NCBI GenBank assembly: GCA_004431415.1
Contig: QPMI01000504.1
Span: 1-58,842 of the forward strand
Direction: 5' to 3'
Length of the DNA: 58,842 bases
DNA from: Cyanophora paradoxa CCMP329
Taxonomy: Eukaryota; Plantae; Glaucophyta
Below, in pieces: positions 13,384-58,842 of the stretch; position 1 is the first letter of the stretch, and each line of letters opens with the position of its first letter. The position numbers were made by a program, and so were the translations under genes. The notes beneath the pieces were generated by a model that saw only the letters and a program-made list of their open reading frames with translations, was not told the DNA's origin and searched no databases.

Positions 13384-13386
13384 GGC

Positions 13387-29392: not shown

Positions 29393-29767
29393 CCTCTTGG
29401 CAGTGGGGCCCGGATCCGGAGGTCGTCTCAAAACAATTCATGCAATAATATCGCCAACTTAAATTTGGGAGAGGGAGGGAGGCGGGAGGGCGGGGAGGGA
29501 GGCGCGCGCCGGCGGCGGCGGCGGCGGCGGACCTTCCCATCGCCACCGCAGAACCGCAGAGCACCCTTTCGAATGACGAACTGCGAGCCGCGCGCGGCGG
29601 ACGCCCGCCCGGCCCACAAGAACCGGTTCTGCCCCAGGCACGCGGCACGCGGCCGCACGCGCACGTGGCGGGCCCCCCGGCGGGCTCCCAGGAAGAACCA
29701 GTTATCTTCCCCGGCGTGCGCACGTGCCCATCGGCAGAATGGAGGCTGGACGAATTCGAAAGTTGCA

Positions 29768-29830
29768 AGTTGGACGAAAGTTGGACGAAAGTTGGACGAA
29801 AGTTGGACGAAAGTTGGACGAAAGTTGGAC
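29768..29830 (+). repeat. 11-bp tandem repeat (AAGTTGGACGA), ~5.5 copies
   Basis: Directly visible. The same unit recurs at 39152-39205. Confidence 0.85.
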
Positions 29831-29869
29831 GTCGTAATCGCAACGTTAACGTTAACTTAGTAACTTAGT

Positions 29870-30534
29870 AACTCTGATTCCGATCGTAATCGCAACCCTG
29901 ATTCCGATCGTAATCGCAACCCTGATTCCGATCGTAATCGCAACCCTGATTCCGATCGTAATCGCAATCGGTCGTAATCGTAGCTCTAGCCAAGGCCTAT
30001 CGTAATTCTGGGTCGTAATTCATTTGCATGCATTGCTCTCACATTGCTCTCATGATTACGACTAGGTTTAAGGCGCCTTCGATTACGATCATGATGGGAT
30101 AACGATTACAATTTAGGCCCGGCGGCCCTTATGGCATGAATTGAAATTGCGATTACGATGTGGAGAGGAAGCTTCAGCTTATAATTAAGCTCAAGGCCTG
30201 ATTGAGATAGGAAGCTTAAGCTTAATAATAAGCTTGCCAAGTTGCAATTGAGACCTCAACCAACTTTTTTTGGCAATTAATGACCAATTAATGTCACAGT
30301 GTGACTAAGTTACATATATATTCAGGTACCCGGTGACCGGTATACGTACCAGAATCACTGAGCAAAAGTTAGCTGCAAGATTCTCAAACACTGACTGACA
30401 GTTCAACCGTGAACGGTTGCCAATTTGCTCATCAGAGTCAGCTAGCGCTGAACCGTTGACCCATGGGACCCATTGACCCACAAAACCCCTGGATTGCGAT
30501 AACGACTAGGGGTTGGACGACGAAGCTGAAGGTA
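29870..30534 (+). mobile_element. Dispersed repeat family A, copy 2 (internal 24-bp unit in four copies)
   Basis: Reverse complement of 13387-13913. CTGATTCCGATCGTAATCGCAACC occurs four times here versus twice in copy 1. The 3' part is shared with 41750-42058. Confidence 0.85.
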
Positions 30535-41560: not shown

Positions 41561-42058
41561 CTGCTCTTTCTACGCTACGGGCGCGCCGGACCTCCTACCT
41601 ACAGCGCTTTAACTGTACCCGTGCTGTTAGGGATAGAGCGTAACCCGCAGGGACTGGTGCCCTGATGGGGAAAAGGGGATGGGAGCCTAGCTAGCTACGA
41701 GCCGAGCAGGCGCTTCGCGTCCACGCCCGTGCCGTAGCGGATGAAGGATAATAATAAGCTTGCCAAGTTGCAATTGAGACCTCAACCAACTTTTTTTGGC
41801 AATTAATGACCAATTAATGTCACAGTGTGACTAAGTTACATATATATTCAGGTACCCGGTGACCGGTATACGTACCAGACTCACTGAGCAAAAGTTAGCT
41901 GCAAGATTCTCAAACACTGACTGACAGTTCAACCGTGAACGGTTGCCAATTTGCTCATCAGAGTCAGCTAGCGCTGAACCGTTGACCCATGGGACCCATT
42001 GACCCACAAAACCCCTGGATTGCGATGACGACTAGGGGTTGGACGACGAAGCTGAAGG
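41561..42058 (+). mobile_element. Dispersed repeat family A, copy 3 (internally deleted), next to the viral element
   Basis: 41561-41742 is the reverse complement of 13995-14177, and 41750-42058 matches 30224-30534. Confidence 0.85.
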
Positions 42059-42472
42059 CGACCCCATTGTGATCTGGCCGCCCGCTAGCGCTGCCCAGGC
42101 CCTGAGGGGCCTCTCCACGCTGTGTGCCCGTGCTCCTCGCCAGCCCCAGTAAATCGGGCTACTGGCCGCCTCCTCAGGGCCTTTCGTCGCCTCCACACCC
42201 GGACAGAAACCCCCGTGTCTCCCTCTCCTAGCTAGCACTATATATATATAGGTATATAGGTGGGCTCTTGCCAAGGGTCGAGCTCTCGAGCTTGCCCCTT
42301 CGCTGTCAATGCATTGTTAACCCTCGGAGGTTGATGAGTCACGCGTTGCGGAGGTTGCATTGTTATATTGCATTCGGGGAGGCAGGGGGACTAACACGTC
42401 CAATGTACCCCCCGGGGGCCTCCCGGCCTCTAACTAGGCTCGGACTCTAACTGAATGCTGTACCCCCTGCGG

Positions 42473-43225
42473 TTACTGCCCGAGCCTAGCGAACTTGCGT
42501 AACTCGGCCTCGCCCTGTACCCAGTGACTGGTGTCGTCCATCCATTCGCGTACCTCCCTCTGACGCTTGAGTGACTCACGCTGCTCAGGTGAGGGGGAGG
42601 GGGGGCCGTAGAGGAGGGGCCGCGGCGGGGGTACCATGCCAAAGTTTGCCCACTCGGGGGGTATACCGAATTCACCGTGATCGATTCTCTGAGGCGTGAA
42701 GTACTGGCCGTCGCTCAGCGCCAGGTGGTAGAAGGCGTTTCGCAGTCGTCTGAGGAAGCGGGGCTGCACAGTCTGCGGGTCAAGGCTCTCGAAGCGCCAC
42801 GGTGCCACAAAGTCAATGATACGCTCCTGCACCCGCGCGGGCAGAGCGAGGATCTGGCTCTTGCGGTTCGCAAAGGCCATCCACAGTGCTTGTAGGTCCG
42901 CCCAATCGCCGTTCAGATCCCTGCGTTCTCGCCTGCCATGATTGCGTGGATTGATCGTCATACCCATGAAACGTGCTGCGCCGATGGTGTTTTGATCTGG
43001 AAACTCTTGATCGTCGTTAAACTTATCTCGTATCCAGCGCACGAGGTACAGCACGCGTTCCATAAAGTTCTCCCCGGGCGATCCGCTCCCCGAATCGGGG
43101 CCCATCGCCCATCGCCGCCGGTGCAGATCGGATTGTGCGTCGTCCAAGTCCACGGTCCGCTGTAGGATCTCACCGATGATGGGGCCGTTGTTGTACAGCA
43201 CGTCGGACTCGCGTGTCCGCGCCAT
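42473..43225 (-). CDS. Viral hypothetical protein with F-box-like motif (paralog 1)
   Basis: Intronless ORF from MARTRES. Contains ENFMERVLYLVRWIRDKF and SQILALPARVQERIIDFV. Confidence 0.6.
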   Translation of the reverse strand: MARTRESDVLYNNGPIIGEILQRTVDLDDAQSDLHRRRWAMGPDSGSGSPGENFMERVLYLVRWIRDKFNDDQEFPDQNTIGAARFMGMTINPRNHGRRERRDLNGDWADLQALWMAFANRKSQILALPARVQERIIDFVAPWRFESLDPQTVQPRFLRRLRNAFYHLALSDGQYFTPQRIDHGEFGIPPEWANFGMVPPPRPLLYGPPSPSPEQRESLKRQREVREWMDDTSHWVQGEAELRKFARLGQ

Positions 43226-43344
43226 GCTCGCGGCTCGCTGAGAATATCTACCCGTACCCCCTATCACGTCCACCTCCACGTCAGGCGATTGTTCTCGAAA
43301 ACGGGGTACGCCTCCTCCTCTGGGGTATAGTGCCGACCTTTGCC

Positions 43345-43964
43345 TCACCCGGCAGACGGTTTCGATCGTCCTGCAGCCAGTCGCGCAGTCGCTTGCGCTC
43401 GTTGATGGGGGCCTCGAGTCAAAGGGGGATACGTAGGCGGGGGGTGGGGTGGGGCGGGCGGAAGCTCTTGCCAGCTCCGGGGTACGAGCTCGCGTGGAAT
43501 CTCGAGCTCTGTGTACCGTGAGCCGTCGTACTGTCGGACACCGCCTTCGCCTGTACGCATGTACCACTGTATCTCATTTCGAAGCCCATTGATCACATCG
43601 CCTTCGCGCCCGTCTCTACCTGCGAGTAAGAAGTTCATGATCTTCAATCTGGCCTCGTTCGGCAGACGGGCCACGCGGCTTCTAGGCGACATCAGCGCCA
43701 CGTACAGGGACGTAAGCACACTGCTGAAGTCCCAGTTCCGATCATAGGATGGGGGGCGAGCCTCACGGTATCCCGCAGCCCCTGGGCTGCAACAGGGGCT
43801 AGCCCCCTCAGCGGAAAGGACGACGTTCCTATCCGATTTCGCATCCCCTCCTTGAACTTATCTCGTATCCAATGGGCCAGGCCCCTAACGCGAGTCAGGA
43901 ACTCTTCGGGGCTCGAATCTTCGTCCATCTGCGGGACCGGGCTCGAATCTTCGTCATCCGACAT
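43345..43964 (-). CDS. Viral hypothetical protein with F-box-like motif (paralog 2; one frameshift near 43750-43800)
   Basis: MSDDEDS..EEFLTRVRGLAHWIRDKF, then after the frameshift SRVARLPNEARLKIMNFL. Colinear with paralog 1. Confidence 0.55.
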
Positions 43965-44016
43965 TTGCAATTGCACACAACGAGAAATTCTAAACGCTAC
44001 TGCGAGGCTACGAGCT

Positions 44017-44652
44017 ATGGACCTACAACAGGGGAGCGCGGCGTGGCACGCTGCGCGCCGCGAAAAGCTAACCGCCTCGAACTTTGCCGCCGCGTGCGGC
44101 ATCAACCCGTGGAAATCCAGGGCCCGCCTCTGGGCGGAGCTGAGCGGGATCGCGGAGGAAAACAACTTTGACAACCCTGCCCTAACCTACGGGCACGACT
44201 ACGAGCCCCTCGCGGTCTCTATCTACAAGGCACTGAACGATAACGTGGACATTCAACACACTGGACTGCACGAACACAAAGAAATGCCGTTCCTCGCCGG
44301 GAGCCCCGACGGACTGATAGGAAATGATAGGATTTTAGAGGTGAAATGCCCTTACAAGGGCGAACTTTACGATAGCGTTCCTACCTATTACATGACTCAA
44401 CTTCAGGGCCTGCTGGACATAACGGGCCGCGACTGGGCCGAACTTTTCTGTTTCACGCCTCTGCGCGTGCAAACGTGGTACGTCAGACGGGACGAGAGGT
44501 ACATCGAGCTCATGCGGCGGTGCTTACATCTATTTTGGATGCACGTGAAGGCTGGAACTCCGCCCGAGCCCTACAGCGATCGAATGAAGTCAGAGAACCT
44601 CAGCGAGGAGCAGGCGGCGCTGCGCGAGTTTAAGTCGTACGCCCTCCTCTAG
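44017..44652 (+). CDS. YqaJ-like viral recombinase / lambda-type alkaline exonuclease (PD-(D/E)XK fold)
   Basis: QGSAAWHAARREKLTASNF..ALTYGHDYEP..FLAGSPDGL..LEVKCPY..YYMTQLQGLL; intact and intronless. Confidence 0.93.
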   Translation: MDLQQGSAAWHAARREKLTASNFAAACGINPWKSRARLWAELSGIAEENNFDNPALTYGHDYEPLAVSIYKALNDNVDIQHTGLHEHKEMPFLAGSPDGLIGNDRILEVKCPYKGELYDSVPTYYMTQLQGLLDITGRDWAELFCFTPLRVQTWYVRRDERYIELMRRCLHLFWMHVKAGTPPEPYSDRMKSENLSEEQAALREFKSYALL

Positions 44653-44990
44653 TGTCCCGACCCTCTCAGATATTAATTTAAAGATCTGGGAGGGTCGGGA
44701 CACGTCTCTTGGTCAGACTACTTATGTACGCCCTCCTCTAGTGTCTCGACCCTCTCAGATATTAATTTAAAGATCTGGGAGGGTCGGGACACGTCTCTTG
44801 GTCAGACTACTTATGTACGCCCTCCTCTAGTGTCTCGACCCTCTCAGATATTAATTTAAAGATCTGGGAGGGTCGGGACACGTCTCTTGGTCAGACTACT
44901 TATGTACGCCCTCCCTCCTCTAGTGTCCGGACCTTTCCAATAATCTATAAAGAAAGTAGGGAGGGTCCGGACACGTCTCTTGGTCGGACT
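44637..44990 (+). repeat. Tandem array of 89-bp units (3 near-identical + 1 diverged), each with a 52-bp imperfect palindrome around an AT-rich core
   Basis: Units start at 44637, 44726, 44815 and 44904. Arms GTGTCCCGACCCTCTCAGAT and ATCTGGGAGGGTCGGGACAC flank ATTAATTTAAAG. Confidence 0.95.
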
Positions 44991-45268
44991 CACCGTAGCT
45001 TGGTGTAGCTCAGGCCCAGGCGGGGAAGGCGAGTCTGCAATGAATCAGACCCCACAGGATTTGGTTGAGCTGCTCTTTGCAGGGGGCAGGAAGGCGGCCG
45101 CAGAGGGCTAGGGAGACTAGATCTAATTAGTAATCCCACACCGCGCATGTGCAAGCGACAGAGAACGAAGTGAGTAAATGCAGATCGATGATACGGCAAT
45201 CATGAGTTGTTCAGAAAAGGTCGGGACACATAGAGAGTGCATGCCCTCACTCTCGTCCGCCCTCGCAA

Positions 45269-45318
45269 TGTCCCGACCCTCCCAGATCTTTAAATTAATA
45301 TCTCAAAAGGTCGAGACA
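45269..45318 (-). promoter_or_regulatory. Solo copy of the array palindrome, inverted, downstream of the helicase (half-site at 45211-45229)
   Basis: Its reverse complement is 49/50 identical to 48631-48680. Function (origin, terminator or recombination site) is unknown. Confidence 0.75.
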
Positions 45319-45419
45319 TTCATTGATCATATGCATGACGTCACTTGAATTCGCACGTTCGTATTTACACACTGGCACGCGCATCCCGTTCGCGAAGTCC
45401 ACACTGTGACATCCGACAA

Positions 45420-48400
45420 TCACACGCGCCTGTGAATGAGAGCATAGCAGTCGGAGAAAACGTTGTAAACCTCTGGGAAGCTTGGCGCCATGCCTGCCCT
45501 TGCCTGCTTAGCCTGGCGCTCTACTGCGTCGTCGAGCATGTCTTCCTCCCACGTGATGTAGCGTCGCTTTCGGCTGCCCATTTGCCCTCCGTCCGCGTCG
45601 GAGAAAGCGCGTCTCACTCCGAGGTACTTCTCCAGCAGGTACTTGATGACTTGCCAAGACTGCTGCGAGAGCCGCTTCTTCTCACCGTCCGCTGCATCGA
45701 AGCGGGGCGCGCGCTCGTCCAGACTCTGCAGAGCCGCGTACGCCTCCCGACCCTCCGGCGACGCCAGGGCCGCGTAGGCTTCGTCCGACCACAGAGCACG
45801 CCCCGCGAGCTTTCCATACCCCGCCAGCCGAAGAGTTTCTTGAACAGCGCGACGACCTTCGATACCTTGAGGCGCTCAGCAGTAGGCACGATCTCGGCAA
45901 CGTCCGCGCCATGCTTCAGCACCAGCGTGACCACGGCAGTGAGCGGGATGGAGTAGAACGAATCCCACATCCAGGCGACGTCTCCTTCGGTCAGCTCGCT
46001 CGGATCCTTGGCCAGGAACGCGGCGATCGACGTGCGAGCAAGCGAAGCAACCTTCTCGATGTCCAGCTTAGCGAGAGACTCGCGGGACTGCCTCCAGGCC
46101 AGCACCGTGCTCCACAGATCGACGGGCTCCAGCGCGCCCGCCTCCAGCACGCTCCTGATCTCGCGCAGCCGCTGCTCCTTCTCCTGCTTCGGTCCGCTCG
46201 GGTTTTGATCCTCCGTGACTTGCACGTTCATCAGCGCGCAGGTCGACATCAGCCGCAGGCGCGCTGCCACTGCGAGGCGCCGAGTGGGCATGCCGGCGCG
46301 GCGGCTCCCGCGGTGGCTAGCCTTCAGGTCCAGGTAGCGCTGCATGTCGTCCGAGCTCTCGTCGTCGTCGCTCTCACGCCAGTGCGCAGCCGCCGCGCCG
46401 ACCGCAACCGAGGGCGTCCGGTTCTTGCGCACGGCGACGAGCAGGTGCTCTCCGTCGGGCGTGCTGCGTTTGCGCAGCCTTCTGACTCGAAACAGCAGCT
46501 GCACGATGTCGTCCGCCTCCAGCTGCGCGGGCTCTGCCTGGAACACGCCGTAGACCTTGTCAAAGTGCGCGTCCGAAAAGTCCACGCCTGCCCGAGCGCG
46601 GAAGTTGCGATGAGCACGTCGCAGGCCTTGTACGCGCCCTCCTCAGACACATCGATCGACACGATGCGCACTGGGCCGTCGTTCGTGAAGCGCACGCTCT
46701 TCTCCTTGGCCTGCCCAACGATGAGCCCGATCGTGAACGGTGCGCCGCTGCCGTCCTCGGGCCCTGCCTCGAGCTGAGTCACGTACTGAGCGCCGCCCAG
46801 GCTGAGCTGCTCCAGCGCCTGCTTCGCAATCTTCTCCTGCATCTCGATCGCCTTGGCCGGCGTCTCTGCAATGATCATCGCCCGGCAGCGCCCCGGTCTG
46901 CACAGCGCCATGATGTCCGCCTCGACGTGCGCCGGGCTGTCTGACACGCGCATCTTCCAGTCGCAGGTGCGATGCGAGTTGTACAGGAGCCCCAGGCGCG
47001 CCCCGACCTCCTGCGCCGACTCTGCCAGGTACGCGAGATCGACCGACCGAACGAAGCCGTCCATCGCCACGATGCGCGATGCCTTCATCACGCCGCGCCA
47101 TAGGCCCACGCAGCGCGCGTTTCGAGGCACTGACCGCATACCTAGGTGCAGGCCGGTGGGCTCGAGGGTGCCGCTCGAGGTGAGGTGCTTCGTGAGGGAG
47201 GAGAGCTCGTCCAGCACGACCAGTAGCGGCGCCGTCGACCAGCCCTCCCAGTCCTCGAGCACCTTGTGCAGCGAGTCCCATGTGATGACGACGCACCTGC
47301 ACTCCTCATGGCGGAAGCCCCACTTGCCATGCGATCCCTTTGAGCTCTCCGGTGGCTTCTTGATGTCCATGTAAAGCACGGCGTCCTTTGACAACTCCGC
47401 AGCATCAATGCGACGCTTGAGGTCGCGGGAGAAGGCCCGGCGGCAAGTCACGAGGATCACTCGCCAGCCGCCTGCAAGGGCCGGGTCCAGGTACGCATCG
47501 ATCAGCGCCTGCGTCTTCCCCGTGTTGAGTCCCGAGCAGATGACGTCGACCTGCGGCTGAGCGGATCTCGGGTTCTGCTCCAGCGCCCCGAATGCGGAGG
47601 TAAGGATCTTGCACGAGAGGTGGCGTTCATCCACTGCATTGACGCAAGCCTCCAGGCCCGTCGACTCGAGCGCGATCAGGAGGGAGGGGAGGGCAATGTC
47701 GAAGGCGACAGGCTGCGAGGGATCGGTCACATAGCGGGTCTGTGCCACGCTGCCCGACTCCCCTCCGGTCCCCTCCCCCTCGAGCTCGACTTCAATACCG
47801 TGCGCCTGGATGGAGATTCGAGCCGCCGGCGCCCCCGGCTGACTCCCGCCCAGGACGAGGGTGATGGACCCGTCGGGCTCGACTCCAAGGTGCTGAACGC
47901 GGCGGGCGTCGTGCAGGCCAAGGTCCGCGCGCAGCTCTGCCCCCGCCTTCCAGATCTCGTCCCTCACCGCCTTGTTCTTGCGCAGGCGGTCCAGGAGCCG
48001 CTCCAAGGCCGGCAGGCTTGGGCTCGAATCCAGGAGAGCGCCCGGCTCCGGGATGGGCTTAGCGCGGGGCGCCGAGCTTCTGGATGGAGTGGGGAGGAGC
48101 TCCGCTCGCGGCCCGGGCGCCGGCCCCCGCAGAACGTAGCCCCCGGTGCCATCCACACCGAGCTCCAGGCCGCTCGAGCTCCCAAAGAACCATGCCATGA
48201 GATCGCAAGCCTCCGGGCTCTGTAGGACGTAGGCAGCCTTGAATCCATTATCCAAGGGGCGAGAGAAAGTGAAGCCTCCGAACTTGGTTGCAAAGGCGCA
48301 GGCTGCCGCAGTGCTCGTCTCATCCTCGGCACCCGAGAAGTGGCTGGGGGTGATGCAGGGCGGGTGGAAGACGCAGAAAGCCGTCCCCAGGGTCGGGCTG

Positions 48401-48540
48401 CAGGCCTTCTGGACTTCGACGAGAGGGAATCGAACGAAAAAGCTGCACTCCTGCTCGCTCAGATCTATCTGCTGTACCCCGGGCCCGGGCATACGGGCCA
48501 GGAAGGCGTCGACGTCGAGAGACACGCGTCCGGTTGCCAT
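45420..48540 (-). CDS. SF2 helicase of the herpesvirus UL9 / origin-binding-protein family (frameshifts near 46590 and 45620-45800)
   Basis: Motif I VICSGLNTGKT, Ia VILVTCRRAF, Ib VVITWDSLHKV, II VVLDELSS, III IVAMDGF, V LIATSAL..GVDF and VI QLLFRVRRL. Confidence 0.82.
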
Positions 48541-48630
48541 GGTCGTCTCTCTATAGCTAGGCTTGGAAAATTCTAGATCTACTAGGCTAGTCGACGTCTG
48601 TTGGCTAGCTATAGTCGACGTCTGGACTGC

Positions 48631-48680
48631 TGTCTCGACCTTCTGAGATATTAATTTAAAGATCTGGGAGGGTCGGGACA
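48631..48680 (+). promoter_or_regulatory. Solo copy of the array palindrome, upstream of the helicase
   Basis: TGTCTCGACCTTCTGAGATATTAATTTAAAGATCTGGGAGGGTCGGGACA. Confidence 0.75.
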
Positions 48681-49823
48681 GGCTTTGGTCCGACCTTAAG
48701 CGCTCAACTAGACCCGGTTGACACCGTCTTGATCTCTCCTTCTTGGCGCAGCGGACGATGTGACGCGCAGACCGTCGGCCCGGCGGACGGGGAGGCGCGC
48801 GCGTAGAACTTCGGAAGCGCTAGCCCCTTGCTTGACCGAAGCTTAGAAAGTTTTGAGCGCACGCGAATGCGACACGTGTAGAGAGAAGGCAGAGCGCGCC
48901 GGAGCTAGCTTGCGCGGCCGAGCGCTCGACCGCCTTTGCTCCTAAGCTCAGAAAGTTTTGGGCTCACGCGGTTGCTCCACGTGTTTCGACTCAAAACACA
49001 GTACCCCAACCCGAAAAAAAGCGCCCGGGCAGCGCATCTCGCAGCGCCCGGGCCCAGCGCTCCTTGCAGCACTTGCCAGAGGCACTAGCTTGCATTCCGC
49101 TCAGCCCGGAGAGCCGCCGCCTCGCTCCTTTCGATTCGGAGGTGCGCCTCACTTCGCAACCTCTTTCTCCGCACCACGGCTAGCTCCGGACCTCAGATTT
49201 TGGGCGCTGGAAAGCTCTCTCGACGCCGCACTCACGCCGCCACGCGCAGGGTCGCTCGCGCCGGCCGCGGACCTTCGAAAGCTCGATGGCGCCCGAGCCG
49301 GAGCACTCCGCCGCATCCCGCAGGTGCCAGCTCGCTCTCTTGCCGCTCTATCCCTTGCATTTAGCACCTAGAACATGTCCCGCAACCTCGCGCTCGATTC
49401 GCCCGCGTCCGCTGACATTTGGTCTCTGAGCAGGTGCCGAGATTGGCCGCCGCGCCTTCCGCAACTCGAGCCGACGTTCGCGGCGACTTGCGCACGCTTC
49501 TAGATCTCGTTCTCAAGCCCGCGCATCGATTCGGCGGCTCCGGCTCGCCTCCCCGCGCCTCCAGCCCCGCGCCCCACACCCGTTCTTGTCCTAGCTAAGC
49601 CCTCCCTTGTCCGCAGCCAGTCGCGGGCTACGCGCATCGCGGATAGCATCAGTGGAGCTACGTTTCAGCGCTGGACGCAGGCCCGCCCGCCCAATCCTCC
49701 CACCTCCCGCTCGCAGCACGCTCACTGGGCCGCAGGCAGCTTCGCGGGGAGCCGCTGGATTCGAAGCCGCGCACCTTCCCCGCCCGTCCCGACGTCGTAC
49801 GCGCTAACGTCGCCCGCGCCGCA

Positions 49824-51055
49824 GGTGGCCGCCAGGCCTCCTGCATCCAGTCCTTCGAGCCGGTGTGGCTGCGGGCGAAGCGCCTCGCCTTCTGGCAGGA
49901 GACGGCCTCCTGCACCCTCACCCGCTTCGTCATCACCCACTGCGTCGTCGACCCCACCACCTACCTCGTCGGCTCGGAGACGGAGGGCGGCATGACGAGC
50001 GTGGCGGGCATCTGCGAGTACATCTCGCGCACGGAGGGCCCGGACGCCGCCGCCGCCGTCGCCGCCGACGTCGAGAACGGCGAGCTGGACGAGACCATCG
50101 CCGCCTTCGGCCCCAGGTGCCGCCTCTTCTCCTACAGGGCCGGCGGCATCTGGCAGACCTACATCCGCGGCATCGTCCCCAAGGCCCCCCTCTCCCTCGG
50201 CGAGAGCCAGCCGGCGCTGCAGGCCATCCAGTTCTTCGAGCCGGCGGACCCGGAGAACGGCCCCTTCCCCGTCAAGGCCTCGATCCGCGGCAGGGGCAAG
50301 CGCACCCGCAACTCGGCCCCCGCCTTCGTCCCGCCCCCGCCGCCCTCCTCCTCGCACGGCCAGCAGCACGCCGGCCAGCAGCACGCCGGCCAGCAGCGCA
50401 TCGACGAGATGCTGCCGCGCCAGGTCCGGCCCCGCGTACCCCCCGCCTTCCCTGTACCCCCCCTCCCCTCGCCCCCCTCCTGATCCAAGGGCAGGGTACC
50501 CCGGCGAACGGCGGCGCGGGCCCGAGCGGCTACGGGAGCTCGGCCCCCTCCGACGGCGCCGGCCCCAGCCCCGTCCCCTTCTCCCTCGCCGACCGCAGCC
50601 CCGTCCCCGCCGCCTTCGCCGCCGCTCCCGACCCGGACGCGTTCATCCCCGGCCCCGGCGCCATCCTCAGCGCGATCATGGGCTTCGGGGCCCAGCAGGG
50701 GGCCGAGCGGCGGGCGCTGGCGGCGCGCCAGGCGCGCGAGGCGGAGGAGCGGCGCCAGGCCCTCTGGGCCCAGCGCCTCCAGCGCACCCTCGCCTTCCGC
50801 GCCGAGCTGGAGGCGGGATTCCGCGCCCGCCAGATCTCCGGTGCGGAGGCCTCGGAGACTTGGCGGGCGTTCGAGGCGGAGACGGCGGGGCTGGCGAAGA
50901 CCCTCGCCCAGCCCTACCGGCGCGTGGCCGTCCCGCAGTCCTACGCGCGGCGGGCGACGCTGGAGGCCTCGCGGGCGGAGATCGACGCGGCGGAGGAGCA
51001 GGCGGAGCGCGAGGAGGCCGAGGACAACGCGCGCTTCCGGCACCTCCACCACTGA
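49824..51055 (+). CDS. Hypothetical protein in the viral element, apparently spliced; 5' exon(s) not located
   Basis: Two strongly GC3-biased frames (49863-50423 and 50495-51055) are joined in phase by a GT..AG intron ending at 50494. A branch point and acceptor (CTAAC..CCGCAG) lie at ~49804-49823. Confidence 0.6.
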
Positions 51056-51103
51056 GGCCTCGAGGCGGTATTTTTTCTCAACCCCTTCCAATTCGGTCTC
51101 GCG

Positions 51104-51295
51104 ATGGCCCTCGCTGACAGCTATCCCCCGCATTACTCGCTAGGAGCCCTCGCCGCGACCCTCACCTGGCTCCTCGGCGGCACGCCCACGGCCTCGGCCG
51201 TCATCGGCGTGGGCTTCGGCTACGCCGCCAAGACCCTCTACGCCCCCGGCTCCGTCTCGATGGCGACGGCCGGCATGCGCCCCGCCGGGCGTTAA
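51104..51295 (+). CDS. Small hydrophobic viral membrane protein (63 aa)
   Basis: ATG preceded by a TTTTCT motif; two hydrophobic stretches; coding-like codon bias. Confidence 0.55.
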   Translation: MALADSYPPHYSLGALAATLTWLLGGTPTASAVIGVGFGYAAKTLYAPGSVSMATAGMRPAGR

Positions 51296-51402
51296 CTCTC
51301 CCTTTTCAAAGTTCCATTCCCCCCTTTCCCTTTTCAAAGTTGCGACGTCCTTTTGAGTCCGTTGGCATTTAAATTTTCTTCATCGTCTGTACACGTCTAA
51401 AC

Positions 51403-51900
51403 ATGCCCAACGCCGTAGAGAAGCTGTTGTGTACGGTGTTCAAATCGGACTCGCGCTGCAGCAAGATCGGCGAGGCTGCCAAGGGCGGGGGCGGGGCGAA
51501 GGCCGGCGGCGGGGCGGAGGGGCCTAAGATAAGGGGCGCGGACCCGGCGCCGCCGGCGCTAAAGTCGATTAAGGCTGCGGGCAAGGGCCGCGGCGTCGGG
51601 CCCCTGCCCCTCGTGGCGATCGCCCCGGGCCAGCGCGAGGCGGCGCACGCGGCGACGGCGGCGCTGGCCTCGCAGCAGCAGAGGGAGGGGGCGCCGCGCC
51701 TGAGCGCCGGCCTCTGGTCGCAGCCTGCGCCCGCGCGCGAGTACGGCGTCAGCGCTTACTTCGACGGCGCGAACGAGCTGAGCCGCCAGGAGATCTGGGC
51801 CTGGGAGGCGCGGCGCGCGGTCGACGGGCACCTGCCGTTGCTCGTGGCGCTCGGCGGCTCGCTCCTCATGGTCTGGTACCTGCGCGGCTTCGCGATTTAG
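51403..51900 (+). CDS. Viral hypothetical protein with C-terminal TM helix
   Basis: 165 aa ending LPLLVALGGSLLMVWYLRGFAI; bounded by AT-rich gaps. Confidence 0.6.
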   Translation: MPNAVEKLLCTVFKSDSRCSKIGEAAKGGGGAKAGGGAEGPKIRGADPAPPALKSIKAAGKGRGVGPLPLVAIAPGQREAAHAATAALASQQQREGAPRLSAGLWSQPAPAREYGVSAYFDGANELSRQEIWAWEARRAVDGHLPLLVALGGSLLMVWYLRGFAI

Positions 51901-51929
51901 ATAGATTTTCGAAGCGCTAGCTAGTAGAG

Positions 51930-52256
51930 ATGAGCTGGCTCGACGCGCTGCTCACCAAGACCTTTGGGCCCAAGGGCGCGCCGCGGCTGCAGTTCGGTGA
52001 GCTCAACGCCGCGATCGGCGCCACAGTCGAGATGAAGAACCGCGAGAACGTGCTGCGCGGCGACGGAGGCGCGTGGGCGGACATTGCGGCGGGCGCGCTG
52101 GGCTCCGCACTCACCGCACCGGGCAAGGCGGGCCGCGCGCTCACGGACGTGGCCGAGCGCTTCTGGCACTGGCTCAAGGTTGCCGTGGTCATCGCCGCAG
52201 CGGTTGTGGCGGGTCTCCTGGTGCTCGAGGCTCGCGCGCTATTTTCTAAACGCTAG
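51930..52256 (+). CDS. Viral hypothetical protein with C-terminal TM helix
   Basis: 108 aa ending WHWLKVAVVIAAAVVAGLLVLEARALFSKR. Confidence 0.65.
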   Translation: MSWLDALLTKTFGPKGAPRLQFGELNAAIGATVEMKNRENVLRGDGGAWADIAAGALGSALTAPGKAGRALTDVAERFWHWLKVAVVIAAAVVAGLLVLEARALFSKR

Positions 52257-52272
52257 GTAAAGCGAGCGAACC

Positions 52273-52677
52273 ATGCCCCGCGGCGGCTCTTCCCCCCGTG
52301 TCTCCTTCGCTGAGAACGAAGTCGCCGCTACCCCCCTGGAGCCCGGCGTCAAGCTGGAGCGCGCGAACGCAGTCTCCGTCAAGAAGGCCAAGCGCGCGCT
52401 GGTTCTAGAAGTCCCCAAGACCGCCTCGCAGTTCCTTCCCACGTCCGAGTACGACGGCACGGAAGATACGGAGAAGGTTGCATTCAACAAGCGCAAGACG
52501 TACAAGGCGATACGCGAGGGCCAGCTGCTGCCCACGGACGCGGTTCCCGGGCTGCCGGGCACCACGGCCGGCGAGCTGCTCGTGCGCAACCTGCGCCTGC
52601 AGTACGTCTCCCGCCTCCGCCGCTCCAAGGCCAAGAAGGCGCGCCTGGACTCGGGCGATAGCAGCTCTAGCTCGTAG
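52273..52677 (+). CDS. Viral hypothetical basic protein (134 aa)
   Basis: ATTTTCTA motif at 52241 upstream of the ATG; coding-like codon bias. Confidence 0.6.
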   Translation: MPRGGSSPRVSFAENEVAATPLEPGVKLERANAVSVKKAKRALVLEVPKTASQFLPTSEYDGTEDTEKVAFNKRKTYKAIREGQLLPTDAVPGLPGTTAGELLVRNLRLQYVSRLRRSKAKKARLDSGDSSSSS

Positions 52678-52693
52678 GGCTCTGTACTCAATA

Positions 52694-52978
52694 CTACCAG
52701 TTCCTGTTCCTATCCCAGAGCACGACTCGGGTAAAGGGCACGGTCATAGCGAACATGAACTCGGCAAACTTGGAGAAGTTCATGAGGGTCCCTAGGCGCG
52801 GGTCCTCCCAGTAGATAGCTTCGCGCAGGGACTCGTAGATGCGCATGAGGGAGCGCTCGTTCTCGGTCGCGAAGGCGTCGGAGGGCTCGTCGGGATCCGG
52901 ATCCGAGAGCTCCGAGTACTCGTCCGAGCTGCCAGCGCTCTCGACGCCTGCGGCCGGGTCGGGCGAGGGGTCAGCCAT
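52694..52978 (-). CDS. Viral hypothetical small acidic protein (94 aa)
   Basis: Acidic N-terminus, then F..ENERSLMRIYESL...NFSKFAEFMF. ATTTTCTA lies ~20 nt upstream. Confidence 0.6.
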   Translation of the reverse strand: MADPSPDPAAGVESAGSSDEYSELSDPDPDEPSDAFATENERSLMRIYESLREAIYWEDPRLGTLMNFSKFAEFMFAMTVPFTRVVLWDRNRNW

Positions 52979-53004
52979 TCTTTGCTGGTAGAAGGGCTAG
53001 AAAA

Positions 53005-53346
53005 TCACGGGCGCCGGTACTCCATCGAGTCGCCGCGCCAGTACTTGTTGCCGGAGGCGAGCAGCTTCATCGGCTCGCCCGTCGAGTCGTGCGTCCAGGC
53101 CTCGCCCGTCCAGACGGCCGTGCCGCCGTCCTCTAGCTTGAGGCGGTGGCCCGCCTCGAGCCGATCGCCGTTGAGCATGCGGCCGGCCATGAGCGCCAGG
53201 TCCCACTCGGTGAGGCCGCGCTGCTCTTCGGGGGTGAGGCCGCGCTCGACGCGCTCGGGCTGGCGCGCCTCGCGCTCCATGCGGCTGAGGCCCACCAGGA
53301 AGAAGATCGGCAGCGCAAAGGCCATGAGATCTAGCAGGGCCTCCAT
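53005..53346 (-). CDS. Viral hypothetical protein with N-terminal TM helix (113 aa)
   Basis: MEALLDLMAFALPIFFLVGL..; TTTTCTAA ~11 nt upstream. Confidence 0.6.
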   Translation of the reverse strand: MEALLDLMAFALPIFFLVGLSRMEREARQPERVERGLTPEEQRGLTEWDLALMAGRMLNGDRLEAGHRLKLEDGGTAVWTGEAWTHDSTGEPMKLLASGNKYWRGDSMEYRRP

Positions 53347-53356
53347 TGGGCAAGAC

Positions 53357-53649
53357 TTAGAAAAGGTTCCGGGCCAGGCCCGAGAGCTGCGGGCCCAGGC
53401 GCCGGGCGGCGTAGTAGAGCGCGGCGGCCGCGGCGGCCAGGATCAGAAGGCGCGGCGGGCCGCGCGCGGGCTCCTCCAGGGTCAAGTCCACGGTCTCTGG
53501 CTCGCGGGCCGGCGTCGCCAGGATCTCGGGCTCGGAGCTAAGGGACTTGGGCCCGCGGCGGCGGCGCTGCTTGGGGCGGAGGCGGCGGCGGCGGCGGAGA
53601 GAAGGTCCTCGGGCTCCTGCTTGATACCTGCGCAGTCAGTAAAGTCCAT
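53357..53649 (-). CDS. Viral small Pro-rich protein with C-terminal TM helix (one frameshift; missed by the ORF track)
   Basis: MDFTDCAGIKQEPEDLL, frameshift in a CCG run, then PPPKQRRRRGPKSL..RLLILAAAAAALYYAARRLG..RNLF*. AATTTTCC upstream. Confidence 0.5.
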
Positions 53650-54336
53650 GCTTGCTGGGTACCTCGGAAAATTGTGGGAGGTGCCCGGCGGCTGCGAACG
53701 TAGGATGGGGGGAGAAGTGACGCGGACGCGAATACGTCATAGTCGAATACGTCATAGTCCAAAACCTGGACTCGGGACTCGGCCCGGGCCCTGGGGAGGG
53801 GGGTACATGTTATGTCCAAATGTCCAAATGTCCAAATGTCCAAATGTCCAATTGAAAGGTTGCGGAGGTTGCGGACGCGTCACAAATACGTCATAGTCGA
53901 ATACGTCATAGTCCAAAACCTGGACTTGGGACCTGGGCCCAGACTCTCGCCAAGTTTCAAATAATAATACTGTACCCCTGTTATCTGCAAGCTTATCTTA
54001 TCGTTATCGTGTCACCTATCCTATCCCGATCCTATCGCTATCCTTTCGCGATCGCTTGACTACACTATTGCATTCATTGCTTTTGAATGTAGTTAATGTC
54101 ATAGCAACTTGAACATGATGTCATGATGATTTCAAGTTAAATACCGGGGTACGGTGTTTTGTTCAAGTCTCTTTTTTTTACCGGCAGGGCCCGGGCCGAG
54201 TCCCGAGTCCAGGTTTTGGACTATGACGTATTCGACTATGACGTATTTGTGACGCGTCCGCAACCTCCGCAACCTTTCAGTTAATTAATTAAGCACTGGG
54301 CTAGCGCTAGGCTAGCTAGATATCGATACCAGCTAG

Positions 54337-54765
54337 CTAGCTCAGCTCTACCCTGCCCAAGTTGATGGTATCTAGCAGCGCCTGCTCCTCTAAGTCTGCA
54401 CCGCCTCCTCCTAGCGCTAGCGCTAGCTCGATACCGCCTCCAGACTTGATCTCCCTTGGCTTCAGCCACCGAAGGGGCTCAGGCCACCTCCTCCTGGTGA
54501 AGCCGGTATCGTTGCGCTTGTCCAGCTTGAGGTAGCGGTAGGGCGCCGGCGCCGGCCAGTCGGGCCTGTGGCTGCTGGCCTCCTTGGCTATGTCCTTGGG
54601 CCTACGCGGAAGCAGGTCGGCCTTGGCCTTGGCCTTCTGCAGAGGGCCCAGCGCCTTGAACTTCGGTGCCTTCGTCGCCGGCAGGGCCTTCGGCTGAGGC
54701 TTCGGTGCCTTCTGCGCCTTCGTCTTCGGCTGCGGCTGCGGCTTTAGCTGCTTCGATTTCGGCAT
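54337..54765 (-). CDS. Lys/Pro-rich basic protein (possible DNA-condensing/core protein)
   Basis: MPKSKQLKPQPQPKTKAQKAPKPQPK..; TTTTCTCA motif ~16 nt upstream. Confidence 0.5.
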   Translation of the reverse strand: MPKSKQLKPQPQPKTKAQKAPKPQPKALPATKAPKFKALGPLQKAKAKADLLPRRPKDIAKEASSHRPDWPAPAPYRYLKLDKRNDTGFTRRRWPEPLRWLKPREIKSGGGIELALALGGGGADLEEQALLDTINLGRVELS

Positions 54766-55002
54766 ACTTCTTGCTCATAAATGAGAAAAGCGCCTCGAAG
54801 TCGGCTTTTATCTCCTCCTTGGTCCAGGATGTCATCTGAGTCGGGTCACCTGAGAACGGCGCATCGAACGCCACGTGGAGCGATTTGCAGGCCTGAGCTA
54901 TCATTGGCTCGGCCAGGCCAGCTCGATCAGCTGAAGGTAGATACTGAGGGCCTTGTCGAGCTTGGCGCCCTGGGAGACTAGCTGGGAGATGGCGGGCTCC
55001 AT
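54602..55002 (-). CDS. Viral hypothetical protein with acidic tail (one frameshift near 54915)
   Basis: MEPAISQLVSQGAKLDKALSIYLQLIEL, then LAEPMIAQACKSLHVAF..KEEIKADFEALFSFM. ATTTTCTG upstream at 55031-55039. Confidence 0.55.
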
Positions 55003-55256
55003 GGTACTGGATTAAGCAGCTAGCCGGGGTTCAGAAAATGGCGCCAAGTCCGAGCTTATTTTTTTACCGGCGGGGCCTGGGCCGAGTCCCGAGTCCAGGT
55101 TTTGGACTATGACGTATTCGACTATGACGTATTCGCGTCCGCGTCACTTCCCCCCCCCTCTTCAGGTGAGCGCTCACCTGACCCTCACCTGAACGGCCTC
55201 AAAACCGCAGCCGCGCCGCGCCCTCGCTCACACTTCACAGCCAAGAGAAATCAAGA

Positions 55257-55547
55257 ATGTGCGCCCCCAAGTACGAGACCTGCTGCCTGACCTTCGGCAT
55301 CTTCGAGTACGAGGCCATGGACGAGGATCTCGACGAGAACGGCGAGATCTGCTTCAACTACTGCAGGCTGCTGCGCAACATCTCGCTGGAGTGCCGCAAG
55401 GGCGACTGCTTCCAGCACATCATGCTCAATCCCGCCAAGAACGAGATCACCCTGTACGCCGTCGCCAGCCCCAGCGCCAGATTTAGACTCTCGAATATTC
55501 GCGTAGCCGTGATTGAGGCTCTCCCCCTCCCCAGTGAGACGAATTGA
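55257..55547 (+). CDS. Viral hypothetical Cys-containing protein (96 aa)
   Basis: Intact ORF with strong GC3 bias; no family recognised. Confidence 0.6.
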   Translation: MCAPKYETCCLTFGIFEYEAMDEDLDENGEICFNYCRLLRNISLECRKGDCFQHIMLNPAKNEITLYAVASPSARFRLSNIRVAVIEALPLPSETN

Positions 55548-55661
55548 ACACGTGTTTTACCTGAATCACCTGAGCGCTCACCCGAGGTCAGCCTGAAGTC
55601 AGGTGGGGCGGCCTTAAATATTTTCTAGCGCTAGGCTGATCGCACACTAAGCTCAGACAAC

Positions 55662-56405
55662 ATGGCCACCGTCCGCAACGCCACCGAGATCGACCCCGCC
55701 AAGCTCGCCTTCGAAATCGATGCCAACGGCCGCATCAAGGCCAAGTACGACGGCCTGCAGGGCCTCATGATGTACGCGCCGCCCATGGTCACGATCAACC
55801 CGTGCATCAACACCGAGCAAGGCAAGGCGTGGAGCGACGAGAAGAAGGCCTTCGTCATGGAAGAAAACGGCGGATTTTACACGCTGGACCTCACGATCTC
55901 AGCGCCGTCGACGGCCAGACGAACCCAGCCGCGGACGAGTTCCTCAAGCTGCTGGAGGCCCTGGACGCGAAAATTCTGCGAGTTCGTGCAGCAGAACCAG
56001 GCCAAGCTCAAGGTCTCGCCCGGGCGCGCCCTCTCCAAGGATCAGATCTCGTGCTGCAGACGCCCAGCGTGCGCATCAGGTCGACAAGGAGTCGGGCCAG
56101 GCCTTCTACAAGTACCTCAACATGCGCATCCGCACGCAGACGATGGCGGGCAAGCGCAAGACGATCCCAGTCGTCGACATGTCCAACTACCTCATCACCG
56201 AGCGCGCCACCATCGGCACGGAGACCTGGTGGCGGCCCTCGTTAAAATCGACACCGCCTACGCCATCCCCGAGGGCAAGTTCGGCCTCAAGTGGTCCTTC
56301 CTCGCCGTGCAGCAGTGCAAGGTCGGCGCCTTTCGCTTCGCCGGCCGCACGCCCGAGCTGCCTTCAAGCCCTACGACAACGAGGCCGATTTCGAGCCCTA
56401 CCTAA
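55662..56405 (+). CDS. NCLDV-type single-stranded DNA-binding protein (T7 gp2.5-like OB fold), several frameshifts
   Basis: Reconstructed sequence LMMYAPPM..FYTLDLTI..DEFLKLLEALDAKFCEFVQQN..PSVRIRVDKESG..GDLVAALVKIDTAY..GKFGLKWSFLAV follows the motif order of Nucleocytoviricota SSBs. Confidence 0.72.
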   Translation: MATVRNATEIDPAKLAFEIDANGRIKAKYDGLQGLMMYAPPMVTINPCINTEQGKAWSDEKKAFVMEENGGFYTLDLTISAPSTARRTQPRTSSSSCWRPWTRKFCEFVQQNQAKLKVSPGRALSKDQISCCRRPACASGRQGVGPGLLQVPQHAHPHADDGGQAQDDPSRRHVQLPHHRARHHRHGDLVAALVKIDTAYAIPEGKFGLKWSFLAVQQCKVGAFRFAGRTPELPSSPTTTRPISSPT

Positions 56406-56479
56406 ACCCCGAGTCTATGTACACCACCCCCATGCAGTAGTTTAGACGAATAAATTGTAAATTCTCTGGTGCAATTGAT

Positions 56480-57293
56480 TACAAGCGTTTACAATCAGAG
56501 GCCGTTGAACTTGCCGCCCACCGCCCTGGCTCCGCCGCCGTCGAGGCCGCCGCCTCCGTCACCTCCTTCATCATCTCCGGGTTCGCGTTGGCCGCGTGCA
56601 CCGCCAGCACCGTCTGCACCAGGGCCATCCCCAGCGCGCCTCGGGCCCAGGGTCACGTAGCGCGAGTACTTAATCACCAGCTCCTCTAAGATCGGCTGCA
56701 CCTGGTCCATGGAAGAGAGCGTCGCCTGCCCGAGCCCGTCTAACTTCAGGCCGATCGGATCGTACGCTTTGTTAAGTGCTCCAGCGAGTGCATGCCCGCG
56801 ATCAGAAAGAGGCGCGCCGCCTCCAGCGAACCCCGCGTGCTCAGCTCGCGCTGAATTTCCTCGTACTCTTCTTCAGCTCGTCCAGCGGCGTGGCGAGGCT
56901 CAGCTTCTTCGTGGACGTCAGCTCGCCCCGAACGAGCGCCTGTACTGCGCGATCTGCCGCAGAACCTGCTTCTTCTCGTCCACGTCCACCTGCGCCTCGT
57001 CGCGCGGCCTCTCCTGCAGGTCGATCCCCAGCGCCTTTTTCACGCTCTGCTCCTTCTTCTTCGTCATTTCGATGTGCTCCTGCACGCTGAAGCTCGCGCC
57101 CTTGCTCGGCGCCGTCGGCGGCACCGGGGCCCGTCGCCCGGTAGCGACGTCTTTGTCGGCCTTCGGCGCCTTCTCGCCCTTTTCCTTGCCTTCCTTCGCG
57201 GGGCGGCCCTTCTTCCGAGGCTGCGGGATCCCCACCGGGTTCGGCCCGTCCACGGCCAGCGCGTCGAAGCCCAGCATCGCCGAGGGGGTCCAT
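56480..57293 (-). CDS. DUF5767-like conserved Nucleocytoviricota protein, several frameshifts; 3' end approximate
   Basis: Reconstructed C-terminus EHLTKAYDPIGLKLDGLG..MDQVQPILEELVIKYSRYVTLGP(E)ARLGMALVQTVLAVHAAN fits the recalled DP..lkLdG..EL..KY...PE.rL...H..N pattern. Confidence 0.65.
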
Positions 57294-57329
57294 TGGTTAC
57301 GCTTGCCCCTTAGAAATTTCCTCGGATTT

Positions 57330-57659
57330 TTACTCCGACGTCAGCTCGACGAAGAGCTCGATGTAAAGCCACAGTTCTCGCGCAGCTCGGGCCCGCTCCC
57401 GTTAGAAGAGCGAGCGCACGGCCGAGGCGTACTCCTGCGGCAGCTTCTCGAAAAACTCCGTCGTCCCGCGCCTAATTAATTCGGCCTCCGCGTTGATGTG
57501 CCTCCTAAAGAGAACGATGACCGCCGTGGCGCCTATGCCGCGCAGCGACTGGATCTGCGCCCGCACCCCCGGCTCCTTGGCCTCCGGCTCCAGCAGGTCG
57601 AGGAAGCGGCCCCAGCGCGCCTCGATCTGCTCGCCCAGCGTCGCCTCCGTCGCTGCCAT
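57330..57659 (-). CDS. Small helical viral protein (frameshifted near 57400 and 57375)
   Basis: RFLDLL..IVLFRRHI..ELIRRGTTEFF, then GPELRE(K)LWLYIELFVELTSE*. The I..FF and lW.Y pattern is recalled from small NCLDV proteins. Confidence 0.55.
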
Positions 57660-57674
57660 GTCGCTAAGGGGGCT

Positions 57675-58794
57675 TTAGAAATTAGCGGGCCAGGATGCCG
57701 CCGCCTTTTGGTACATTTCCGCCATGCGTGCGTTGGTTTCCCGTCGGATGTTCTTCTGTCTGTCCTGAGTTCCACGACCATGGCTTGGAATGCCTTTTGG
57801 ATGTCGAACTGATCGTCGGTTTCCATCCCTGCGACAGTACCCTCCTGTCGCACCTGGTTGAGAGCTTCGCGCTGATCCGAGGTTGTAAAGTCTTTCCCTA
57901 CGCGATTGTTGGGTTCACCACCCTCGGCAGCAGATTCTGGTCCGCATACGGCCATGCCGTCGGCAGCGCAGGGCCCGCGTGCCTTGCTGGTCCATGAGCA
58001 TTGCTCCGAAGGATTGCCCTTGCTGAAGTCGACGTCGTTCCGTCCGTACGGCCTGTTGTGCTCGCTGCTGATGTTCGCCGTCTGCGCGTTGAACATGGGC
58101 GAGAGGTCGGGCGTGTAGCCGGCGCGGAAGCCGCCCTTGCCGGCAGCATCGACGGGGCCGTAGCGCCCGGCGGGCCCCAGCAGGTTCTCCTTCTCGATTC
58201 TTCCATCGTCTTGATCCAGCCGCGCTCGCGTGCCCACTTCATGACGAGATCGTCGTAGTTCATCGGGAAGAAAACTTCTGGTACTTATCGAAACGCTGAA
58301 TTTCGATATCCTGCTCGATCATGTTCGTAATTCGCTCGAGCAGCTCGGGGTAATATTCCTCGAGCATTTTAGCCACGCCGGGCTGCTTCAGGTCGAAGGC
58401 CGTCATGGCCCACTGGTCGAAATCGCGAATCATGATTTCCTTCCGCAGCGCGAACGCATTCTCGACGTCCTCTTCGTTTGATCTGGCGGTTGGGATAGGC
58501 ATTCTGCAGCTGCTGCCGAATGCCCATCCGCATCAGCTTCTCCATCTGCGGGGTGTACTTCATCGCGGGCAGGGTCTTCGTGGGAAGGGCCGTCAACCCG
58601 AGGCCCCGCGCCTGATCCTCCGGCGTGTAGATGTCCGCCTTGCCCGGATCTGTGACGTGCACCTCGGGTAGGATCGTGCCGGGCGCATACTTCTCAATGA
58701 TGCCCGTCACCTCGCCCTTCAGGTCGTTCTTCAGCGACTGGCGCTGCTTCTTAGAGCCCTCCCCGATGTCCATCATGGAATGGCCCTTCGTCAT
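57675..58794 (-). CDS. Viral hypothetical protein (several frameshifts; ends approximate)
   Basis: Successive coding frames include RDFDQWAMTAFDLKQPGVAKMLEEYYPELLERITNMI and PMNYDDLVMKWARERGWI. Confidence 0.55.
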
Positions 58795-58842
58795 CGTGCC
58801 TCGGTTAGGATCCCAGTGGGAAAATTTATTGGTTCACATCGG

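Follow-up and report, generated by a model that had tools for sequence, protein, structure and literature searches.

At oriS of herpes simplex virus, the initiator UL9 binds the arms of its site and melts the AT-rich core between them, and this origin has a palindromic layout with an AT-rich centre, as does the site described below. In plasmid rep/iteron modules, an initiator gene is flanked by repeated sites and is exchanged with them as a module. UL9-like helicases have also been reported in some Yaraviridae, mimivirus, African swine fever virus (ASFV) and SmDNAV (10.1101/2024.02.29.582850; PMC11253617; 10.64898/2026.08.29.747986), and among mriyaviruses the accessible text of one description places UL9-like superfamily 2 (SF2) helicases only in a subset of Yaraviridae, where the protein has an intact AEP primase domain (10.1101/2024.02.29.582850). 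Endogenous mriyaviruses are known from chlorophytes (10.64898/2026.06.19.733378), an endogenous element of the Mriyaviricetes was found in a Glaucocystophyceae assembly (10.1101/2025.04.19.649669), and giant-virus-like regions were noted in Cyanophora paradoxa (PMC12344493). In this work, a contig of 58,842 nt from the glaucophyte C. paradoxa CCMP329 (QPMI01000504.1, positions 1 to 58,842; this whole stretch is called the window) was analysed. It contains an endogenous, multi-copy element that is very probably a gamadvirus-related mriyavirus, in which the gene of a UL9-like helicase is bracketed by copies of one palindrome. Our preferred reading, to which we give about an even chance, is that of an exchangeable initiator-plus-origin cassette, in which the palindrome is both the predicted binding site of the helicase and the origin, is iterated, and is exchanged together with the gene. 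The features on which this reading depends are:

42300..58842: endogenous mriyavirus-like element (left end approximate, right side beyond the window), seen from multi-copy depth, EukProt gene order and a WWTTC motif
44017..44652, plus strand: YqaJ/PDDEXK nuclease gene, 211 aa (PF09588, E 2.7e-28), a backbone gene of the virus
44637..44990: tandem array of three near-identical 89-bp units and one diverged unit, each with a 50-bp palindrome
44653-44702, 44742-44791, 44831-44880 and 44924-44973: palindromes of the four array units
45269..45318, minus strand (inverted): fifth palindrome, between array and helicase gene, about 100 nt downstream of the helicase stop
45420..48540, minus strand: UL9-like SF2 helicase gene, allele A (PF02399), with two frame breaks in this assembly
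48631..48680, plus strand: sixth palindrome, 91-140 nt upstream of the helicase ATG
45276..48675, plus strand: approximate extent of a spliced RNA antisense to the helicase gene, whose 12 introns (49-117 nt) lie between 46192 and 47985
44460..44994, minus strand: spliced RNA antisense to YqaJ, with two CT..AC joints, in run X15 only

An earlier note on this DNA had described a YqaJ nuclease and a UL9-like helicase converging on four 89-bp palindromic units, the first of which includes the end of the nuclease. The convergent arrangement of the two genes is borne out by the profile matches, and the first unit indeed opens with the last four YqaJ codons and the stop, the first base of the palindrome being the last base of the stop codon. 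The period of 89 (3.9 copies by tandem-repeat analysis, with the unit number as in the assembly contig) and the build of the palindrome, with arms of about 20 bp carrying 1-2 mismatches around a 12-nt AT-rich core, also hold. Units 1-3 are 99-100% alike, with units 2 and 3 identical, but the fourth has diverged, being 63% (ungapped) to 80% like the others. The helicase has the orientation described, but its stop lies about 430 bp from the array, with the fifth palindrome in between. The four units fold strongly as single strands (DNA folding z of -7.5 to -3.5), and in unit 4 a C-G swap alters both sides of one arm pair in such a way that pairing is kept.

The palindrome pattern has 6 matches in the window, versus 0 in 100 shuffles, and all six are confined to 4.0 kb around the helicase gene, which is bracketed by the fifth and sixth copies in inverted orientation relative to each other. 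In most genomic copies the sixth palindrome is itself tandem, with an 86-bp unit, as seen in contigs of the DNA runs X1 and X9. Here and below, joints and depths are read from assembled contigs of sequencing runs, and the joints are those in the rows listed (15 and 20 further rows exist). The joint from 48692 to 48629, with 22 letters between, has a depth of 461 beside 669 in X1 and of 2135 beside 3972 in X9. Given that the unit boundaries and flanks differ (89 bp in the array, 86 bp upstream of the helicase), the palindrome was amplified separately at two sites. Read contigs also contain additional palindrome variants directly after the YqaJ stop. Outside the element, a pattern that matches five of the window copies had 0 matches in prokaryote genomes, and a looser one had 0 matches in 141 retrieved loci. 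Just three long palindromes were found in 493 kb of relatives, whose loci are partial, and none belongs to this family; long palindromes at position 1398 of L116 and 7311 of L122 (2 of 40 gamadvirus-like loci) are unrelated in sequence to that of the window.

The similarity of the helicase to UL9 is seen in the match to PF02399 (E 1.4e-6; 27.1 bits versus a curated cut-off of 20) and in weak matches in the PDB to the herpes origin-binding protein (E 0.011). Its nearest Atlas clusters have PF02399 in 31-53% of their members and include the cyanobacterial CyRepA1 plasmid initiators, which are neighbours at 0.96. Like UL9 it is an SF2 helicase of this family, but the likeness is confined to the helicase motifs, the arm sequence is unrelated to that of oriS, and the site flanks the initiator gene and is iterated. 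The proteins R8 of mimivirus, pF1055L of ASFV and the primase-helicase of SmDNAV, a virus that also has YqaJ and a T7-like single-stranded DNA-binding protein (SSB; 10.64898/2026.08.29.747986), belong to the same helicase family and, likewise, to nucleocytoviruses. They have an AEP domain, whereas none was detected by Pfam in the window helicase, and no cognate origin is described for them in the accessible parts of the literature found. Compared with plasmid rep/iteron modules, the arrangement sits inside a eukaryotic virus and its repeats are palindromic instead of direct iterons.

At both frame breaks of the helicase gene (near 46.6 and 45.8 kb), the dominant short-read contigs from two DNA runs disagree with the window, and EukProt models of other copies (P0055, P0008) keep the frame open. 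The breaks are therefore likely to be assembly errors or peculiar to the window copy. Gene models fall into four groups, A to D, with identities mostly of 85-100% within and about 30-75% between groups, values that carry noise from gene-model errors; the best local alignments give 54-68% for A-B, 47-75% for A-C and 38-56% for A-D. SF2 motifs I, II, V and VI are kept in all four alleles. YqaJ, on the other hand, is 97-100% identical between element copies, also where another helicase allele adjoins. Non-A alleles lie on 13 contigs, of which 6 have a neighbour seen at 93-100% identity to the gene of the window, one has noisy values and 6 are without a retrieved neighbour; neighbours were retrieved via 90%-identity clusters, which biases them to close ones, although the contrast on the six contigs stands. 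In tig00021762, for example, the helicase is at 41-43% identity and its neighbours at 99%. On tig00000140 and tig00021332 the EukProt helicase models are two gene numbers apart, and in tig00000983, a rearranged copy, the gene number of YqaJ falls between those of two helicase pieces; these are tandem or rearranged copies, or split gene models.

Within Cyanophora, nuclease and helicase are neighbours elsewhere too, with consecutive gene numbers on three further contigs and consecutive accessions on one more. In the partial loci of 40 environmental relatives, YqaJ stands with SSB and the packaging ATPase and no helicase-profile match was found; nor was there such a match in 100 partial YqaJ loci (best E 0.035), and 33 of the 41 long unmatched open reading frames (ORFs) of the 40 SSB loci, when scanned, gave no Pfam family. 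No relative of the helicase was found outside C. paradoxa among 1.84 billion representatives, P0064-P0066 being Cyanophora proteins. No prior example was found of a UL9-like helicase in a gamadvirus-like backbone, nor of four alleles in a near-identical backbone. The only link between the nuclease and the array is adjacency, and the duplication that made the array took in the 3-prime end of YqaJ, a gene of the backbone. The self-contained system of origin, initiator and resecting nuclease put forward earlier thus survives in part: origin plus initiator is still the best reading of the sequence, but both genes belong to a larger endogenous element.

The helicase gene is also covered by antisense RNA. 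Of its 12 plus-strand GT..AG introns, 9 are seen in X15, 6 in X17, 12 in X18, 8 in X19 and 11 in X20, runs that come from five studies and whose RNA nature is judged from the splicing itself; among the rows listed, no such joints occur in the DNA runs X1 and X9. One further row, with CC..TT ends, lies three bases away from a GT..AG row, matches it in length and probably represents the same intron. Eleven introns end in CAG and one in TAG, with a branch-like motif in 8 of 12, and they are probably cryptic host splicing, in a genome with many short introns (PMC6704402). A protein-coding antisense gene was considered and rejected, with the longest spliced frames reaching 310 and 269 codons from stop to stop versus 375 unspliced; this rejection is based on frame length, and the 235-aa ATG frame was not searched against databases. 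At positions where the window departs from most allele-A copies, the antisense RNA has the majority letters, and it is therefore not assignable to the window locus. On the other strand, the RNA antisense to YqaJ has a 423-nt intron that removes the entire array (X15). The alternative of a nuclease-linked structured-RNA array, raised earlier, finds no backing in this splicing, nor in Rfam, where no family lies above cut-off and a single weak match is to a miRNA precursor (34 bits versus a cut-off of 72).

RNA depth rises across the fifth palindrome, and past the sixth it falls in three of the five runs and rises in X17 and X19, runs that include unspliced contigs whose strand is not fixed. In X15, X18 and X20, the step at the fifth copy is 15- to about 270-fold with flat DNA depth, and the drop at the sixth is 8- to about 90-fold; contigs cannot fix RNA ends or levels. 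On the right side of the sixth palindrome, a short RNA contig (48651-48922) reaches high depth in X17 (553) and X19 (246). In the same two runs a steep depth peak lies beside the fifth palindrome (45276-46352), with unspliced contigs across the first intron, and could represent sense helicase 3-prime ends in 3-prime-biased libraries. No earlier report was found of antisense RNA across a UL9-like helicase gene.

In the initiator-plus-origin cassette, a helicase dimer would bind the two GC-rich arms of the palindrome and melt the 12-nt AT core, after which the viral SSB and a host polymerase would take over. According to the accessible text of their description, mriyaviruses encode no DNA polymerase (10.1101/2024.02.29.582850), and none was found in the part of the element within the window. 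The tandem palindromes would serve as iterons, and the one ahead of the helicase ATG could permit autoregulation. Helicase and site would be swapped jointly between virus copies, in the manner of plasmid rep/iteron modules, with the YqaJ exonuclease and the SSB as a plausible recombination pair in this allele exchange. Once the virus is integrated, antisense transcripts made in the nucleus between the palindromes, and spliced at cryptic introns of host type, may dampen the initiator. Such a silencing role is suggested by the host RNAi machinery (PMC3700990) and by the enrichment of viral-origin genes in the methylated, silent fraction of the C. paradoxa genome (PMC12344493). A more speculative extension, which we hold only tentatively and consider rather doubtful, is that there are several replication incompatibility groups, each with a UL9-like initiator and its own palindromic origin, and that integrated copies are kept latent by the spliced antisense RNA running from origin to origin. 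Herpesviruses make latency transcripts, and the antisense RNA is the proposed counterpart in the alga.

The origin reading is favoured because the palindrome occurs only around the helicase, is amplified at two sites and accompanies a helicase that varies like a specificity module, and because arm pairing in unit 4 is kept by a two-sided change and the look-alikes of the protein are PF02399 members and plasmid initiators. Several observations weigh against it. The palindrome has been linked to allele A, the one allele covered at the DNA level, and the allele contrast depends on the 90%-identity clusters, with the six contigs lacking a neighbour and the noisy one. Beyond the helicase motifs the protein has little similarity to UL9, no DNA-binding domain was recognised at its C terminus (pLDDT of the structure model, 36), and there is the lack of helicase relatives outside Cyanophora. 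In addition, palindromes occupy the positions expected of 3-prime hairpins, one at the stop of YqaJ and one some 100 nt past that of the helicase, with sharp changes of RNA depth across them.

These last two points are what would be seen if the palindromes were transcript-boundary signals, either hairpins for cleavage and polyadenylation or bidirectional starts, and not an origin, which we consider unlikely. The palindromes follow both convergent stops in the same sense orientation, the depth steps occur at the left and right copies in X15, X18 and X20 with flat DNA at the left, and Mimiviridae polyadenylate at hairpins (PMC4402537). However, in the accessible account the mimivirus hairpins follow most genes and are not conserved in sequence (PMC4402537), whereas the palindrome of the window is conserved and, among 17 element stops, long hairpins follow only those of YqaJ and the helicase, the other 15 having none comparable. 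No strong hairpin follows YqaJ in 96 distant loci (best score 9 versus 17 for the window). Tandem amplification would be left unexplained, depth to the right of the sixth copy rises in X17 and X19, and contigs are not suited to placing RNA ends. The palindrome is not a general promoter either, given that element genes have their own WWTTC motif, which for the helicase lies at -30. Somewhat less likely again is a stem-loop origin nicked by an HUH endonuclease for rolling-circle replication, with the helicase merely as motor. Rolling-circle origins usually have a GC stem with an AT loop, and the units fold strongly as single strands. All mriyaviruses encode an HUH endonuclease according to their description (10.1101/2024.02.29.582850, accessible text), but none was recognised in the window by Pfam and PHROG scans, six nick sites in both orientations would be unusual, and the partial loci of relatives have few long palindromes and none of this family. 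Both of these explanations can coexist with the origin reading.

It is improbable that the palindromes serve recombination, as its sites or as homology arms at the borders of an exchangeable helicase cassette. Their arms around an asymmetric core are reminiscent of recombinase sites, an inverted palindrome pair brackets the gene, the alleles are mosaic, and tig00000983 has YqaJ between two helicase pieces. On the other side, the window yielded no recombinase, the rows listed contain no strand-changing joint, and long allele-A contigs run past the sixth copy to about 49.86 kb. Least probable of all, in our judgement, is that the array is a hairpin expanded by neutral slippage within a silenced provirus, with the antisense RNA as noise. 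Palindromes promote duplication, units 2 and 3 are identical and the spliced RNA has no long ORF. The methylated, silent state of viral-origin genes (PMC12344493) would also fit. Against this, the arms persist in six copies, in one of them by compensatory change, the helicase motifs are intact in all four alleles, and the RNA is seen in five studies.

The initiator-plus-origin cassette is part of an element whose known extent exceeds 16 kb (at least 16.5 kb within the window), and its other features are:

55662..56441, plus strand: nucleocytovirus-type SSB gene, frame-broken in the window
56495..57293, minus strand: DUF5767 gene with a broken frame in the window, a likely Mriya_50 from its place in the gene order
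57898..58794, minus strand: frame-broken gene for a homologue of the 304-aa protein found on gamadvirus-like contigs, a likely Mriya_51, again from gene order

Close homologues of the element proteins are all EukProt proteins of C. paradoxa, and element genes occur on at least 59 EukProt contigs, with conserved order where several genes are seen. The long helicase contigs have depths of 669-838 in X1 and 3972-4004 in X9, against 19.9 and 115.8 for a unique host contig, and these ratios suggest roughly 34-42 genomic copies of allele A, depth not being strictly copy number. The two ORFs to the left of YqaJ (42473-43955) have about 8-fold depth versus at least 30-fold elsewhere, and this is a variable region, most copies diverging upstream of 43955. 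The WWTTC motif, which was chosen after looking at the sequence, stands ahead of 15 of 17 element ORFs against a background of 7%, with a spacing of 18-31 nt in 13 cases. It also precedes 165 of 268 long ORFs in the relatives L101-L140 (background 9%) and is likely a mriyavirus promoter element. In a second repeat cluster (53704-55181), two small ORFs are surrounded by inverted and direct pairs of a 70-90 bp repeat that contains a doubled 15-mer and is present four times, and a perfect 20-bp palindrome (55162-55181) accompanies them; the cluster could be another origin or a terminal junction.

The intact SSB copy P0143 scores 0.97 in the Atlas to a Nucleocytoviricota cluster and 0.94-0.95 to DUF5871/DUF2738 clusters, a recognition under the threshold of the tool that is backed by SSB relatives in 40 IMG/VR loci. 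The intact DUF5767 copy P0122 matches PF19071 (E 2.7e-13), and DUF5767 is found in 20 of the 40 loci; a homologue of the window ORF 58260-58502, from the 304-aa protein gene, is found in 16 of 40 (E 6e-4 to 2e-7). Only one of 100 loci from the YqaJ scan, L005, also encodes SSB and DUF5767; it has a nucleocytovirus major capsid protein (MCP) that matches nothing among phage records, an A22-like RuvC, VLTF3 and a weak A32 ATPase match. The alignment of SSB led to the 40 loci L101-L140, one on the same contig as L005, on contigs of up to 42.7 kb, with ATPase in 40, VLTF3 in 39, YqaJ in 38, MCP in 23, DUF5767 in 20 and RuvC in 17. The gene order of L005 matches that of Pleurochrysis endemic virus 2 (PEV2), RuvC-MCP-PDDEXK-SSB-ATPase-VLTF3 (Table 1, PMC11253617), and it is on gene order that L005 and L101-L140 are assigned to gamadviruses, given that the IMG/VR identifiers are absent from two supplement files of that paper. 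In a tree of 83 YqaJ sequences, for which every second one of the other loci was used, the window protein falls in a clade (support 0.81) with all 36 gamadvirus-like sequences and 0 of 33 other viral YqaJ; the clade also holds five database proteins, one of them from a plant. The metagenome proteins P0015 (YqaJ, 64%) and P0144 (SSB, 88%) resemble those of the element and suggest close relatives outside this assembly.

With 'Gamadviridae' such as PEV2 (PMC11253617), the element shares PDDEXK/YqaJ, which is a criterion for mriyaviruses, the gamadvirus-conserved SSB (PEV_26), which is one for gamadviruses, and probable Mriya_50 and Mriya_51. Gamadviruses have SF3_hel2, which was not seen, whereas the element has an SF2/UL9-like helicase and a rearranged gene order, and it is for this helicase that it is filed as gamadvirus-related and not as a member. 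Profile scans of the 16.5 kb inside the window found no MCP, packaging ATPase, VLTF3 or RuvC; mriyavirus genomes are 35-45 kb. Likewise, no marks of Polinton-like viruses (their capsid module, YR/RVE integrase or terminal inverted repeats) were recognised in this part, and a mriyavirus is favoured over a Polinton-like virus by the genes shared with mriyavirus-like contigs. The surroundings of the element are those of a chromosome end, with:

1-4933: telomeric array of 842 six-base units
13383-14177, 29736-30532 and 41561-42058: a near-identical host repeat in three pieces, of which the third abuts the left end of the element

Rightward of the telomeric array lie host genes, with splicing shown for some, and from about 42.3 kb short ORFs are tightly packed. 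A subtelomeric helicase element was considered and rejected, given that the telomere array stops at 4933 and host genes occupy the intervening 37 kb.

The virus class and its presence in a glaucophyte were already known, and what appears new is the UL9-type cassette with its palindromes, alleles and antisense RNA. In agreement with the earlier note, which knew of no description of the arrangement, none was found of the palindromes, helicase alleles or antisense RNA in the literature searched, most subscription papers lying outside the search. The accessible text on gamadviruses (PMC11253617) describes no such origin, alleles or antisense RNA, and the main text of the report on the Glaucocystophyceae element (10.1101/2025.04.19.649669) contains 'UL9' and 'Cyanophora' 0 times, while its figures and supplements may show this element.

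Mriyaviruses have been proposed to be like the forerunners of giant viruses, and the start of their replication has so far only been predicted. The accessible parts of the literature found describe no site bound by a UL9-like protein other than those of herpesviruses, and the palindrome, if the reading is true, would be the first origin of any non-herpes UL9-like protein to turn up in the searches made. Given that one cultured alga carries dozens of copies with four natural initiator alleles, covariation of protein and site and binding in vitro are directly testable. The spliced antisense RNA, in turn, suggests a concrete mechanism, open to testing, through which such proviruses may be kept quiet by an early-branching alga or by the virus itself.

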